DNA of 64,000 nucleotides from Candidatus Nomurabacteria bacterium (GCA_020632035.1 JACKGG010000001.1:152985-216984), one strand, 5' to 3'; shown: positions 3,746 through 64,000, counted from the first letter of the stretch. Notes: generated by a model from the sequence alone, not told the origin. Program-made: numbers and translations.

Positions 3746-5001
3746 ATGCCATTCTCAATACGCTAGAAAAATACCTCAAAACAGACCTTCGCTACATTAT
3801 CGGTGGTGGCTTTTGGCTGACAGCAGGTAAGGTTGTGGCCATGTCGATAGCCTTCATATCATCTGTCGCCTTTGCCAACCTACTACCAGAAGAGACCTAC
3901 GGAACATATCGCTACATAATTTCAATCTTAGTGATTTTGGCCCTGCCCACCTTATCAGGTATTGATACATCAGTGACCAGATCTATTGCACGTGGTTTCG
4001 ATGGTTCGTTTAAATCCGGATTAATAACTAAATCAAAATGGGGAGCACTGGGGGGACTTATGTCTGCCATTATTGCTATCTACTATTATTATCAAGGCAA
4101 TACCATCTTTGGCCACATATTTATTATAAGTACCGTACTGATGCCACTATTAAATGTAAGCTATTTATATCTATCAGTATTAAGTGGAAAGAAGGACTTC
4201 AGGTCCATGTCTCTCCATTTAACTGCATCGAGAATATTTGTGGTCATAGTGATGGTGACTACAATATTTAATACTTCAAATCTGTTTTTTATATTCATCG
4301 CCTACTTCTTCTCTTACTCAAGTACACAAATAATATCAAGTTTAATTGTCTGGCGAAACCAAATCAACAATGATAAGACAGAGCCAGGCGTGACATCGTA
4401 CGGCAAACACTTATCAGTGATGCAAGGAGCGACAGTAATAGCAAATAATATTGATAAAATATTATTATTCCAATTCACTGGCCCAGCCATATTAGCAGGA
4501 TATTACTTGGCGTTGGTACCGTTTAAACAAATAAAAAACTTTTTGTCTGCCTTGAATGTTCTGGCTCTACCCAAGCTATCAAGCCAAAAAGTCTCAGACA
4601 TCAAAGTCAATCTCCCGCCCAAACTAATCAAGTCGTACCTACTAATTGTACCGATTGTACTCTCCTACATTATCTTGGCGCCTTTTTTCTTTAAAATCTT
4701 ATTCCCTAATTACGTTGATTTCGTATTTATATCTCAATTATTTTCTCTGATGTTATTGTTTACTCCCACCACACTATTGAACACTGCCTTGACTGCTTTA
4801 GAGTTCAAAAAACAACTATATATAGTGTCTACTTCAACAGCTATTCTTCGGGTGCTTCTCTTATTAATAGCAGTTCCTTTATGGGGTTTAACGGGTGCAG
4901 TTAGTGTGGTCATTATTTCTCAGACTTATACCGCTATTTGTTTAGTATTCTTGTTCTGGAAAATAGAACCGCCTGAACCAACTGGAGCTGTATTACAGTA
5001 A
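3742..5001 (+). CDS. Polysaccharide/oligosaccharide flippase (MOP/Wzx-like)
   Basis: 419 aa polytopic membrane protein (about 12 TM), located in glycan locus; start overlaps GtrA-like stop by 4 nt. Confidence 0.5.
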   Translation: MNAILNTLEKYLKTDLRYIIGGGFWLTAGKVVAMSIAFISSVAFANLLPEETYGTYRYIISILVILALPTLSGIDTSVTRSIARGFDGSFKSGLITKSKWGALGGLMSAIIAIYYYYQGNTIFGHIFIISTVLMPLLNVSYLYLSVLSGKKDFRSMSLHLTASRIFVVIVMVTTIFNTSNLFFIFIAYFFSYSSTQIISSLIVWRNQINNDKTEPGVTSYGKHLSVMQGATVIANNIDKILLFQFTGPAILAGYYLALVPFKQIKNFLSALNVLALPKLSSQKVSDIKVNLPPKLIKSYLLIVPIVLSYIILAPFFFKILFPNYVDFVFISQLFSLMLLFTPTTLLNTALTALEFKKQLYIVSTSTAILRVLLLLIAVPLWGLTGAVSVVIISQTYTAICLVFLFWKIEPPEPTGAVLQ

Positions 5002-33095: not shown

Positions 33096-33146
33096 AACAG
33101 TAAGCTACCATTATATCGATATTAAAAAAAGCCAGGTCAATCCCTT

Positions 33147-33167
33147 GACCTAGGGTAACCCTAGGTC
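33147..33167. repeat. REP-like palindrome (gacctagggtaaccctaggtc), left flank of Y1 transposase
   Basis: Perfect palindrome; second copy at 33864-33900 and third copy inside murD at 39061-39081. Confidence 0.7.
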
Positions 33168-33849
33168 AGCTTTGGTGACCTTTTAAAATATCGGTATTGT
33201 ATGCTAACCACTCAAACAATTCTTTTTTCATATCTATATGACTAGAAAAATAATCTGGGAATGGAGACGAATCTAAAACGGCTTTTTCTGGTCGATTTAA
33301 TCCTAAATGATCAGGCAAACTTGAATACTGATAAGTCGATACGAATTTATACGCAGTTTCTAAATTCTTTATCCCCCTCTCTACCCAATCTGATTGATAC
33401 AACTTAACAGGATTAAGGTGTATATAGGAATATAAATATTTTAAATATTCATCTTCTCCGGCGTGTTTAGCTTTATAATTTCCTTGGAACAAGGTGCCGG
33501 TACGCTCGTTTCTTTTATTAAAATACATTGAGTAACTTGTACATAATTTATTCATAAAAATACCTAGACCATCATCAGTATGTGGTGTGGCTATAATATG
33601 AAAATGATTAGGCATAAGACAGTATGCGCCGATAGAGACAAGTTGTTCCTTCCTATTAAATTCAAATATATTTTTACCCGACCTAGAAATATTACGATAG
33701 TTTACTGATACTGATGAATTACAAAGATATAAAAGATCAATAAATCTTTTATAATCTGCAGTATCAGTAAAGATAATTCTTCTGTCGGTACCTCTATTAT
33801 AAATATGATAAAACTCGCCAGTTGAAAAACTTATACTCCTGGTTGCCAT
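33166..33849 (-). mobile_element. HUH Y1 tyrosine transposase, IS200/RAYT-like (REP-associated)
   Basis: HuH motif CLMPNHFHIIAT and catalytic Tyr region YSYIHLNP; flanked on both sides by the same palindrome. Confidence 0.6.
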
Positions 33850-33863
33850 TTTTGTATACTAAC

Positions 33864-33900
33864 ACAACCTGACCTAGGGTAACCCTAGGTCAGGTTGTGT
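33864..33900. repeat. REP-like palindrome, right flank of Y1 transposase (extended 18-bp stem)
   Basis: acacaacctgacctagggt-a-accctaggtcaggttgtgt. Confidence 0.7.
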
Positions 33901-33922
33901 TATCTGCCGAAAATTTACAATA

Positions 33923-37700: not shown

Positions 37701-38417
37701 ATGACGAAATCATATGTTCTTCAGAAACCCGAATACACTGTAGCTCTATATGGACCTAGCAAAGAAAGAGTCAGGTCTATACCAGTTAAACATGGAGCAA
37801 ATAAAAATAAGATTTGCTTACTGAAAGCAGCTAGTAATGAAACCCATCGTGGTTTTACGGAAATGTCAGCACCAAAATTTGGTAATTGGTTCAGTAATGA
37901 CTTCGATTTGTTTGCTGACGGTACGACCCTGACTGAATCTCGTTCGTCGGTTGTCGTTCAAACTGCCGGTTGCAACCTGCTTTCACTATACGAACGTACG
38001 ACCCACAGTCTATCTGTAAGTCATGTCGGTAGGCCAGCCTTAACACCAAGGAATAAAATAGGTGAACCAATCATAAATATGGTCACTAAAGCTTACCAAC
38101 AATTGGTATTTGGTGTAAAAAACCCTGAGGTAGAAGCTTACATAACTGGAGGCGTTTGTAGCAAACATTTTCTTCACGATAGACCAGAAGCGAAGCATCT
38201 GATTGAACCCTTTGATCAGTTTGGTGAGCTTGCATTCACTGACCGTGAAACTGGAGCGCTTGATATACAACGCATCATCATTTATCAACTTCTGGAACTC
38301 GGGGTAAAAGAATACAAAATTGAAACCGATGGCTTGTGCACCAAGGAAGAACCTTGGCTAACCAACTATCGAGACGATACTGTATCTCGTAATGTGGTAG
38401 TTTTTGTTCTTCATTAA
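37701..38417 (+). CDS. PgeF/YfiH-like (DUF152, peptidoglycan editing factor/laccase-domain) protein, motifs degenerate
   Basis: VQTAGCNLL (cf TADC), SHVGRPAL (cf HAGWRG), CSKHFLHD; adjacent to murC and murD. Confidence 0.4.
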   Translation: MTKSYVLQKPEYTVALYGPSKERVRSIPVKHGANKNKICLLKAASNETHRGFTEMSAPKFGNWFSNDFDLFADGTTLTESRSSVVVQTAGCNLLSLYERTTHSLSVSHVGRPALTPRNKIGEPIINMVTKAYQQLVFGVKNPEVEAYITGGVCSKHFLHDRPEAKHLIEPFDQFGELAFTDRETGALDIQRIIIYQLLELGVKEYKIETDGLCTKEEPWLTNYRDDTVSRNVVVFVLH

Positions 38418-38438: not shown

Positions 38439-38472
38439 AAAAGGCGCGGTCCAGAGACCGCGCCTTTTTTAT
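38439..38472. terminator. Bidirectional rho-independent terminator between convergent PgeF-like and murD genes
   Basis: aaaaggcgcggtc-cagag-accgcgcctttttt. Confidence 0.7.
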
Positions 38473-39824
38473 TCTTTGATATCAATTTCATTTATACATC
38501 TAACAAACTCGTCGTTTCTCTCATATTCATTTTTGAACATTCCAAATGAGGCGAAACCTGGGCTAAAGAGGAGGACGTCTCCGGGTTGGCCGGAGGCCAA
38601 CCCGGCCGAAACAGCATCAGACAAACTCCCCACCACCTCAGACTCAACCATTTCTTTTAGAACATCTGTACCCGTGCCCTTTAATAAAACAATCTTCTTA
38701 CAGAACTTCTTTGTCTCTTCGGCCAAAGGAGATGGGTCAATATTTTTGTATGCGCCACCGGCAATTAGAATTACATTCTTATCATTAATATTTCCCACAG
38801 CTTGCAAACCTTTTACCGTTGCTTCAGGAATTGTAGAATTATTATCATTATAAATCTTTACCCCATTTTTTTCTCCTAGGTATTCGAGCCGACCAGGTAC
38901 GCCTGGAAAACTAGCCAATCCAGCGAAAATAGACTCTTCATCTAAACTAACTGCCTTCAAGGCTTCGCAAGCAATGGCGGCGTTTAGTCGATTATGTGCT
39001 CCAGGCATGGCCAATAGCGCGTCTTCGGGGATAACTGACTCATCTACCAACTTGACCTCTTGACCTAGGGTTACCCTAGGCAATTGTTTAGCTAGTTCAA
39101 AAACTTCTGGAGTGGTGACGAGGACTCCGCTTTCTTCTTGGTATTCAAATATATTGGCTTTGTCGGCAAAATATAATTTCAAAGCTTCTTCTTTAGTTCT
39201 ACCTCCAGCTTGATAGTAGTTGAGGTGATCTTCCATAAAGTTGGTAAATACAGCAACTTGTGGACTCATCTTTGACCATCCCCAGCCTTGTAACTGCCAA
39301 GAGTCTAACTCCATAACACAGAGTGAATCTTCATTTACTTCATCTAAAAGTTGTAGATTGGAAACACCACGGACATTCCCGCCGAGAAGGACTTTTTCAC
39401 CAGTTACTTCAGTCAAAACATGATGAATCATGTGTGTGACAGTAGACTTCCCCCTAGTACCAGTCACTCCAATAATCGGTACTTTAGAAATTTCGGCAAA
39501 CCAAGCTGCCGATTGTTTGAGTGGCACGCCCGCTTTGCGGGCGTGCTCAAAGACTTCCAAATCCATCGGAGCTCCAGCACCCACCAAGACAAAGTCACAT
39601 TCAGTGAAGTGTTCCTTTTGATATGGACCAAAAGAAAATCTGACATTTGGATAGTCTGCCAATGCATCGACGGATGGTTGCATTACTTCTTCTGAGGCAT
39701 CATCAACCACGTGTACTTCAGCTCCTGCATCAGCTAAAAATTTTGCGTCGCCGACACCTCTACCAAGTAGGCCAATTCTCATTACAGTTATTTTCTTTCC
39801 GTAAAAATATTCTTTAAAATTCAT
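38469..39824 (-). CDS. murD: UDP-N-acetylmuramoylalanine--D-glutamate ligase
   Basis: N-terminal MRIGLLGRGVGDAKFLADAGAEV, IIGVTGTRGKSTVTHMIHHVL P-loop, MPGAHNRLNAAIACEALKA; contains in-frame REP copy (39061-39081) and GC palindrome (39534-39556). Confidence 0.75.
   Translation of the reverse strand: MNFKEYFYGKKITVMRIGLLGRGVGDAKFLADAGAEVHVVDDASEEVMQPSVDALADYPNVRFSFGPYQKEHFTECDFVLVGAGAPMDLEVFEHARKAGVPLKQSAAWFAEISKVPIIGVTGTRGKSTVTHMIHHVLTEVTGEKVLLGGNVRGVSNLQLLDEVNEDSLCVMELDSWQLQGWGWSKMSPQVAVFTNFMEDHLNYYQAGGRTKEEALKLYFADKANIFEYQEESGVLVTTPEVFELAKQLPRVTLGQEVKLVDESVIPEDALLAMPGAHNRLNAAIACEALKAVSLDEESIFAGLASFPGVPGRLEYLGEKNGVKIYNDNNSTIPEATVKGLQAVGNINDKNVILIAGGAYKNIDPSPLAEETKKFCKKIVLLKGTGTDVLKEMVESEVVGSLSDAVSAGLASGQPGDVLLFSPGFASFGMFKNEYERNDEFVRCINEIDIKE
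39061..39081. repeat. REP-like palindrome copy (tgacctagggttaccctaggca) inserted in-frame inside murD
   Basis: Same cctagggt-N-accctagg palindrome as flanks of transposase at 33166-33849; encodes LPRVTLGQE in murD reading frame. Confidence 0.65.
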
Positions 39825-41773: not shown

Positions 41774-41846
41774 TCCGCGCTCTAGGGTTCGAACCTAGGA
41801 CCTTTCGAGTATCAGTCGAATGCTCTACCAACTGAGCTAAGCGCGG
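41774..41846 (-). tRNA. tRNA-Ile (anticodon GAU)
   Basis: Minus-strand 73-nt cloverleaf: acceptor CCGCGCT/AGCGCGG, D-arm GCTC-AGTTGGTA-GAGC, anticodon loop CTGATAC, T-arm CTAGG-TTCGAAC-CCTAG, discriminator A; CCA not encoded. Confidence 0.85.
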
Positions 41847-42856: not shown

Positions 42857-43087
42857 TTAAAACTCTACTTCTGTTCGTAAGGGTTTATTCATAATCATAA
42901 CTCACAGCAGACTTGGAGTGTCACGTACTCTTTTGTCTTATCCTTTAGGCTTGGTCTTTCCCAAGAGTCTAATACCATTTCAGAGAATTGAGTATCATTT
43001 CTCGTTATGTGCTCAATTGAGGCACATAACACCGACCAATTAGTTATCATTGTGCTTTGTTACCAAAACACGACAACGTATCCAATT

Positions 43088-44545
<1,458 letters not shown>

Positions 44546-63121: not shown

Positions 63122-63233
63122 AAGTTGGCGCCTACCTACTCTTCCCCTTGCGGAGTACCATCGGTGGTAGAAGACTTTACTGCCGTGTTCGGAATGAGAA
63201 CGGGTGTACCCCTTCCCCCAAAGCACCAACTTG
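63122..63233 (-). rRNA. rrf: 5S ribosomal RNA
   Basis: Minus strand AAGTTGGTGC...CACCCGTTCTCATTCCGAACACGGCAG...GATGGTACTCC...GAGTAGGTAGGCGCCAACTT; helix I pairing of ends; matches bacterial 5S consensus (CCGAACACGG, GATGGTA). Confidence 0.8.

Positions 63234-63789: not shown

Positions 63790-64000
<211 letters not shown>

Follow-up and report, generated by a model that had tools for sequence, protein, structure and literature searches.

Probable length-neutral overwriting of a MurD loop by a REP palindrome in Candidatus Nomurabacteria and related bacteria

In a 64,000-nucleotide stretch of the genome of a Candidatus Nomurabacteria bacterium (GCA_020632035.1, JACKGG010000001.1:152985-216984; hereafter, the window), murD, the gene for UDP-N-acetylmuramoyl-L-alanine--D-glutamate ligase, contains a 17-nt perfect palindrome that is identical to the core of the repetitive extragenic palindromic (REP) sequences flanking a nearby gene for a REP-associated tyrosine transposase (RAYT)-like protein. 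Judging from comparison with orthologues, the REP core occupies the place of pre-existing codons in a variable loop of MurD, with no amino acids added. The explanation we favor, with a probability of about 0.55, is that a MurD loop already resembling the 3' half of the REP was overwritten recurrently, without a change of length and with a REP as the template. The relevant features of the window are as follows:

33146-33168, no strand assigned: REP copy TGACCTAGGGTAACCCTAGGTCA, at the 3' end of the RAYT gene
33166-33849, minus strand: RAYT-like Y1 (HUH) transposase gene, 227 aa (Pfam Y1_Tnp, 38 bits; cut-off, 23)
33860-33902, no strand assigned: REP copy within a 43-nt perfect palindrome, TAACACAACCTGACCTAGGGTAACCCTAGGTCAGGTTGTGTTA
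38469-39824, minus strand: murD, an intact open reading frame (ORF) of 451 aa
39061-39082: murD core with its flanks, TGACCTAGGGTTACCCTAGGCA, equal to the RAYT-flanking REP at 20 of 22 positions
39064-39080, no strand assigned: REP-core palindrome CCTAGGGTTACCCTAGG, 17 nt, perfect, inside murD

On the coding (minus) strand, the murD site reads TTG CCT AGG GTA ACC CTA GGT CAA GAG (L-P-R-V-T-L-G-Q-E), where the palindrome core, CCT AGG GTA ACC CTA GG, encodes P249-R250-V251-T252-L253-G254. The identical 17-mer is found elsewhere in the window only at 33149-33165 and 33873-33889, which makes three REP copies per 64 kb, one of the three being intragenic. No match to the 17-mer is expected in dinucleotide shuffles of the window, and a scan of the 64 kb allowing up to four mismatches detected no additional core copies above chance. 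The initial annotation, which had reported that the palindrome flanking the Y1 transposase also occurs within murD, with the frame intact and the peptide LPRVTLGQE encoded, was correct on these points: the cores are identical, shuffling yields none, and the 451-aa ORF is uninterrupted. Nor is the palindrome an assembly artefact, given that an identical protein (P0001; proteins and DNA loci are denoted here by P and L, respectively) is encoded in independent Logan/ENA contigs, and the motif is present in six other, independently assembled orthologues. All three cores in the window are predicted to form hairpins, with z-scores from -3.8 to -7.5; the hairpin in murD comprises 7-8 bp (-21.8 kcal/mol for the 56-nt context, z = -3.8). 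An Rfam search of the window identified no RNA family at the murD palindrome.

Two further repeats were observed in this region. An 8-nt tandem direct repeat, CTTGACCT CTTGACCT (39051-39066), borders on the murD palindrome and runs into its edge; the coding-strand version consists of two copies of AGGTCAAG and encodes G-Q-E-V-K. This repeat is probably coincidental because the GTC AAG codons of E-V-K are also present in the palindrome-free L123. A second palindrome, CCAAGGAAGAACCTTGG (38341-38357), lies in a gene of the Cu-oxidase_4 family (37701-38417) and differs from the REP core by four mismatches, the chance level in shuffles.

The transposase encoded next to the two other REP copies contains the invariant residues H82-F83-H84 and Y142, the latter within the motif Y142...H144-L-N-P147. 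It scores 46 bits against the NCBIfam profile NF047646 (REP_Tyr_transpos), below the cut-off of 80 bits. Among its 7927 homologues, all the named ones belong to Patescibacteria groups, and one is annotated as RayT. The REP copies bracket the Y1_Tnp ORF on both sides, in inverted orientation. The stop codon of the RAYT gene (minus-strand TGA) is provided by the last three bases of the copy at 33146-33168, and the 43-nt palindrome, with a predicted 20-bp stem (-34.8 kcal/mol, z = -7.5), is located 11 nt upstream of the RAYT start and downstream of metK. Flanking of the transposase by REPs on both sides recurs in L042, and cores are found beside RAYT genes in L078 and L034.

To delineate the distribution of the repeat, one genome per species in a 596-Gb collection was scanned for the exact pattern CCWAGGGTWACCCTWGG, which resulted in at least 119 matching loci; the number of chance matches in the collection is estimated at about 280, so that many of the matches outside Patescibacteria may be due to chance. 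The loci listed come mostly from Saccharibacteria, Paceibacteria, Kaiserbacteria, Adlerbacteria, Zambryskibacteria and Nomurabacteria, and several Patescibacteria genomes among these matches hold multiple copies. Additional palindromic flanks typically accompany the copies, in some cases with T runs after them, and cores adjoin RAYT homologues with 45-52% identity in L025, L034, L042, L078, L081 and L083. By pattern matching and gene neighborhood, CCWAGGGTWACCCTWGG is a dispersed, RAYT-associated repeat that is strongly enriched in Patescibacteria, which supports the initial annotation in treating the palindrome as a member of a REP family. A literature search turned up, in the library searched, no description of REP or RAYT in Patescibacteria, but only general papers on REPs and on intragenic REPs; apparently, this is a phylum-wide REP-RAYT family of small Patescibacteria genomes that has not been described previously.

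By profile and structure matches, the host ORF is a bona fide MurD. It passes the TIGR01087 equivalog threshold (266 bits against a cut-off of 212), displays the three-domain Mur ligase architecture (MurD-like_N, Mur_ligase_M and Mur_ligase_C in Pfam) and matches MurD chains in PDB with E = 4.5e-38. In the AlphaFold model of the protein (mean predicted local distance difference test score, pLDDT, of 87; 72-80 across the palindrome-encoded stretch), residues 249-254 lie within a coil (246-255) of the central domain, between a helix (239-245) and a strand (256-259). A candidate equivalence between VTLGQ and the 'VSFG' strand of Escherichia coli MurD was rejected because the HMMER alignment to PDB MurD places VFEL at that strand; PRVTLGQ is aligned to the following loop or hairpin.

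Some additional features of murD in this group were noted. The window MurD appears to be mosaic: its N-terminal domain (about 100 aa) is of the '...EVHVVDDASEEVMQPSVDAL' type, as in P0004-like sequences, and overall the protein is nearest to P0002 and P0003, both of the '...DVIVTDLKSEEEL' type. This mosaicism suggests past recombination within murD. The murD genes of L146 and L147 are identical over a stretch of about 21 codons except for TAG versus GAG at the codon corresponding to window residue 243, and the in-frame stop in L146 could reflect a pseudogene, a sequencing error or recoding.

Whether the palindrome was inserted into murD or replaced part of it was addressed using three sets of orthologues: 38 aligned proteins (68-100% identity), 80 metagenomic DNAs compared at the codon level, and 120 listed protein clusters. 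The initial annotation had proposed an in-frame insertion of 7-9 residues. Comparison with about 200 orthologues does not bear this out: there is no indel at the palindrome, and not a single residue has been added to the loop. The usual loop in the orthologues is K-x-L-x-G-V-T-L-G-Q-E, in which the two residues preceding Val are variable. T-L-G-Q-E is kept throughout, residues G254 and Q255 do not vary, and V-T-L-G-Q-E is also found in relatives devoid of the palindrome, an outcome that the initial annotation itself had named as contrary to an insertion. The window protein departs from this pattern only at Pro249-Arg250, usually x-Gly, and the gene departs further in its synonymous codon choice. 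Mobilization of the REP in trans by transposition, also proposed initially, is not what the murD copy shows because codons have been replaced and none added.

Seven MurD lineages carry PRVTLG at the identical site (hereafter, PR lineages); five of these encode it in a perfect REP-type palindrome, and two in a palindrome with one mismatch:

window, L001 and L091: CCTAGGGTAACCCTAGG, perfect palindrome
L202: CCTAGGGTTACCCTAGG, perfect, with a T center
L002: CCAAGGGTAACCCTTGG, perfect; both wobble positions changed and compensated, corresponding to the other common REP type
L203: CCTAGGGTAACGCTAGG, imperfect by a single mismatch
L204: CCTCGGGTTACCCTAGG, imperfect by a single mismatch

Outside the window, PR-type murD genes come from the assemblies GCA_035915455.1 and UBA3527/DFPA01 and from the Logan runs ERR14369873, SRR14126288, ERR10493310 and SRR16297628.

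In a neighbor-joining (NJ) tree constructed with the loop masked, the PR proteins are dispersed, and their nearest neighbors, with 84-91% amino acid identity, all lack PR. Of the 17 core bases, 6-9 are changed relative to the sister genes, against 0.20-0.24 differences per base elsewhere in the gene, and this excess points to a multi-nucleotide event. Among the 120 clusters, the PR state is found solely in palindrome-bearing genes, and Arg is almost never used at this site otherwise. Taken together, these comparisons indicate that the REP core was written over ancestral codons by repeated multi-nucleotide events and seems to have been acquired independently in several related bacteria. Two other lines of analysis were not used. 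Ranking the longest identical runs between pairs of PR murD genes is not discriminating because, although the palindrome came first or second for some pairs, conserved motifs also yield runs of 17-32 nt; and the idea that P-x-V loops (PGV, PKV, PEV) are decayed REPs is unsupported, the synonymous sites of these loops showing no enrichment of the REP type.

Could the match to the REP core be a mere by-product of the constraints of encoding PRVTLG? The peptide P-R(AGR)-V-T-L(CTN)-G does by itself determine six of the eight stem pairs, and a proteome of about 3e5 residues is, by our estimate, quite likely to hold a near-match to any hexapeptide. Given the peptide and the codon usage of the window, however, the probability of the REP-type encoding is 0.0028 per lineage; five of the seven lineages are perfect and the remaining two are one step away; the PR state is confined to palindrome-bearing genes; and there are no matches in shuffles. 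The codons tell the same story: Thr is encoded by ACC in six of the seven PR genes compared with 22% of 37 distinct non-PR orthologue DNAs, and Leu by CTA or CTT in all seven compared with 22% of the same 37. Pure coincidence is thus effectively refuted already by the shuffles, the recurrence and the codon data, and we give it hardly any credence. The identity of the murD palindrome with the RAYT-flanking REP, as originally claimed, far exceeds chance despite the coding constraints (P = 0.0028), and, at the level of codons, the palindrome looks REP-derived rather than coincidental.

Another alternative is intramolecular quasi-palindrome correction, in which one arm of a hairpin is copied from the other and the likeness to the REP is fortuitous. 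Quasi-palindrome template-switch mutations are an established class of length-neutral multi-base changes. The codons CCN GGN GTN ACN CTN GG (P/x-G-V-T-L-G) are already nearly palindromic, and the PGVTLG codons of some orthologues, such as L150 (CCAGGGGTGACCCTCGG), agree at 14 of 17 positions with a palindrome and likewise with the REP core. Such a process, however, would copy the Thr and Leu codons that are present (ACG, 38%; ACT, 24%; CTC, 32%), and is predicted to generate Pro-Ser-Val about half of the time, as well as AGA/ACT or CCG/CTC stems; none of these variants was detected among the orthologues, in either the 120 clusters or the DNAs compared at the codon level. Instead, all seven lineages are of the REP type (ACC, CTA/CTT), for which the joint frequency is 0.047 per lineage and about 5e-10 for seven, if these are independent. 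In addition, several sisters are not quasi-palindromic (EEVTIG, SEITLG). We consider this route improbable.

The patchy phylogenetic distribution of PR might alternatively reflect short-tract horizontal recombination that spread a single murD patch, through selection for Pro-Arg or by hitch-hiking. The mosaic composition of the window MurD (N-terminal part of the P0004 type, the rest nearest to P0002 and P0003) is in line with such exchange. Yet the identity among the PR genes is confined to 17-20 nt, with the flanking codons differing at most third positions, whereas tracts of homologous recombination are normally far longer; the variants with the T center and with the CCA/CTT stem need separate origins in any case; and Arg is otherwise almost never used at this position. 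This scenario appears even less probable than arm-to-arm copying.

True insertions of REPs into murD do occur elsewhere in the phylum, as judged from sequence comparison, including the same loop. This loop is hypervariable in a MurD family that is farther removed from the window protein (about 41% identity). The murD gene of L086 (positions 1830-1870; record titled Candidatus Saccharibacteria) contains in this loop a 41-nt perfect palindrome, CCACAACCCTTTCCAAGGGTTACCCTTGGAAAGGGTTGTGG, read in another frame and orientation as NPFQGLPLERVV, with a gain of 1 aa; its outer arms, CACAACC/GGTTGTG, are common to the 43-nt RAYT-flanking palindrome of the window. In the murD gene of P0165/L205 (GCA_039740375.1, L205:1676-1717), a REP doublet, ATCCAAGGGTTACCCTTGGAT CGCTT TCCAAGGGTAACCCTTGGAT, translated as ANPRVTLGSLSKGNPW, is a true insertion into the same loop, with a net gain of 8 aa, and P0158 is a decayed relative of this insertion. 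A third core of L205, at 4333-4349, lies inside the neighboring murC ORF. P0202 carries an 11-aa, QGLPL-containing insertion in a different MurD loop. Hence the parallel that the initial annotation drew with Rickettsia palindromic elements (RPEs) fails for the window copy, which adds no residues, but holds for other Patescibacteria MurDs, namely, P0165/L205 and P0202.

Among the matches listed, 53 of the 132 cores are located in long ORFs, many of these being chance matches in other phyla. Depending on the frame, the peptide encoded by the core is PRVTLG, QGLPL or KGNPW/KGYPW, the CCTAGG variant being open only in the PRVTLG frame. In Patescibacteria, in-frame cores were found in the genes for TGT, a CitMHS transporter, MurJ, RecG, PheT, LigA and a class-V aminotransferase (loci L008, L019, L026, L041, L064, L093 and L110) as well as MurC.

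These insertions raise the possibility that the window copy, too, arose by a true REP insertion of the RPE kind, followed by an exactly compensating deletion under selection for loop length. Apart from the residue-adding REPs in the same loop (P0165, +8 aa; the decayed P0158; L086, +1 aa), the REP-encoded residues in those MurDs also partly replace ancestral ones. For the window family, however, this scenario requires seven independent events, each exactly length-neutral, and no longer intermediate is seen among the roughly 200 orthologues. Selection for exact length is not evident either, given that the loop tolerates 1-3 aa in either direction and, elsewhere, 8 additional aa. Furthermore, the T-L-G codons belong to the palindrome and yet encode ancestral residues. 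Insertion with compensation accordingly seems unlikely, if less so than arm-to-arm copying.

Of the alternatives, the one that we rate highest, albeit still as unlikely, is that the hairpin itself is selected, as DNA or RNA, either as a binding or cleavage site of a domesticated RAYT or as a pause or processing signal in the transcript of the dcw cluster. The palindromes are perfect in five of the seven lineages despite nearly saturated third-codon positions (0.36-0.46 identity), the double change in L002 is compensatory and preserves the stem, one and the same site is used recurrently, and the predicted hairpin is stable. Conversely, two of the seven copies already contain a stem mismatch, and about 95% of the orthologues, close sisters included, have no palindrome, which implies that it is dispensable for MurD. 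The compensated variant in L002 is the other common REP type, so that re-templating explains it equally well; no Rfam family covers the site; and ribosomes readily unwind a stem of 7-8 bp within an ORF.

Overwriting templated by a REP, the reading we prefer, would proceed as follows. The source would be the core of the organism's own REP, the hairpin repeat of the neighboring RAYT-type HUH transposase. The V-T-L-G-Q-E codons, GTN ACN CTN GGN CAR GAR, already coincide at 11 fixed bases with the 3' half of the REP plus its flank (GTAACCCTAGGTCAGG), and this microhomology would provide a landing pad that predisposes the site. A short-patch event would then copy the rest of the core into murD, by template switching or by gene conversion with a REP copy in the genome as the donor, perhaps with assistance from the RAYT acting on the hairpin. 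Six codons would be overwritten in this way, with the ancestral x-Gly-Val-Thr-Leu-Gly becoming Pro-Arg-Val-Thr-Leu-Gly and the Thr and Leu codons being reset to the REP versions. The change would be tolerated because the site is a coil of the central domain in which only two loop residues are altered, and the copy may well be a passenger without a function of its own. Subsequently, an overwritten copy would decay through ordinary point mutation, which fits the two copies with one mismatch (L203 and L204).

Several considerations weigh against this scenario. We know of no demonstrated mechanism for length-neutral REP replacement, and transposition of the HUH/IS200 type adds the length of the element. 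The sister genes have diverged by about 20% at the DNA level, too far for the limits of the replaced tract to be delineated, and some sisters are only modestly similar to the REP (for example, GAA GAG GTT ACT ATC GG), so that the microhomology is short. The claim that the seven events were independent depends on a crude NJ tree and on nearest-neighbor identities. The murD variant was compared with the genome's own REP variant in one of the seven lineages, that of the window, where the two match, and genomes encoding a RAYT often lack PR in murD (P0296/P0009, P0324/P0073 and P0327/P0103, seemingly on shared contigs). With three REP copies in the window, the donor pool in the genome may be small.

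More broadly, Patescibacteria REPs may enter coding sequences in two ways, by insertion and by directed, length-neutral conversion of quasi-REP sites, with the VTLGQE pad of murD having been hit at least six times independently; we put this generalization forward tentatively, at somewhat below even odds. To our knowledge, the multiplication of REPs is not understood mechanistically, and RAYT-driven mobilization has not been reconstituted in vivo. Against this background, a murD site that repeatedly gains the REP core without a change of length amounts to a natural experiment, which points to templated conversion rather than cut-and-paste. If this is true, REP families can propagate in a second way and can drive convergent x-Gly to Pro-Arg changes in essential proteins; a selfish repeat is then able to bring about convergent amino acid changes in an essential cell-wall enzyme. 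At the practical level, the peptides PRVTLG, QGLPL and KGNPW/KGYPW can serve as annotation markers of REP-derived segments in housekeeping proteins.

Elsewhere in the window, the rRNA genes, all on the minus strand (43085-44544, 63123-63230 and 63800-64000), are unlinked, the 16S rRNA gene being about 19 kb away from the 5S rRNA gene and the 3' end of the 23S rRNA gene. A tRNA gene is located at 41774-41846.

Among the known systems, the closest counterparts are the REP/REPIN-RAYT systems, which have been described mainly in Proteobacteria. As in those, short GC-rich palindromes flank a single Y1/HUH gene in inverted orientation in the window, the Patescibacteria copies are dispersed, often as doublets, and often resemble terminators, and the HUH motif and the catalytic Tyr are retained. 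There are also differences. The two published REP superfamilies are defined by a GTAG or CGTC tag (PMC3733652), whereas the Patescibacteria core CCWAGGGTWACCCTWGG has no such tag, which is absent both from TGACCTAGGGTAACCCTAGGTCA and from the CCAAGG-type units. The transposase scores below the NCBIfam RAYT cut-off, the copy number is low, at 3 per 64 kb, and the murD copy is intragenic and length-neutral.

RPEs, like the published intragenic REPs, lengthen the host protein by an insertion of roughly 10-50 residues (Di Nocera et al. 2013, PMC3733652). The window palindrome resembles them in being translated in frame, in a loop of a conserved and presumably functional protein, but differs in that it adds no residues and stands in place of six codons, of which three specify ancestral residues that are conserved. 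Intragenic REPs have been reported to be biased towards replication and repair genes (PMC3733652), and the in-frame cores of Patescibacteria (MurD, MurC, MurJ, RecG, LigA, PheT, TGT) echo this bias.

The uptake signal sequences of Pasteurellaceae and the DNA uptake sequences of Neisseriaceae (USS/DUS) provide an analogy only: there, too, a short motif accrues in genes without a change of length. USS/DUS settle where the peptide is tolerated and the codons are already near the motif, through drive rather than selection on the protein. They differ in occurring about once per kb and in having no link to a transposase, whereas the window holds three REP copies in 64 kb, two of them flanking a RAYT gene. 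Finally, quasi-palindrome correction and ectopic template switching in E. coli and phage T4 share with the murD case a length-neutral, multi-nucleotide change that perfects a hairpin from a short-homology seed. The difference is that the murD product matches an external repeat at the free positions, not the opposite arm within the gene. This match to the external REP family implies an ectopic REP template rather than an intramolecular one.

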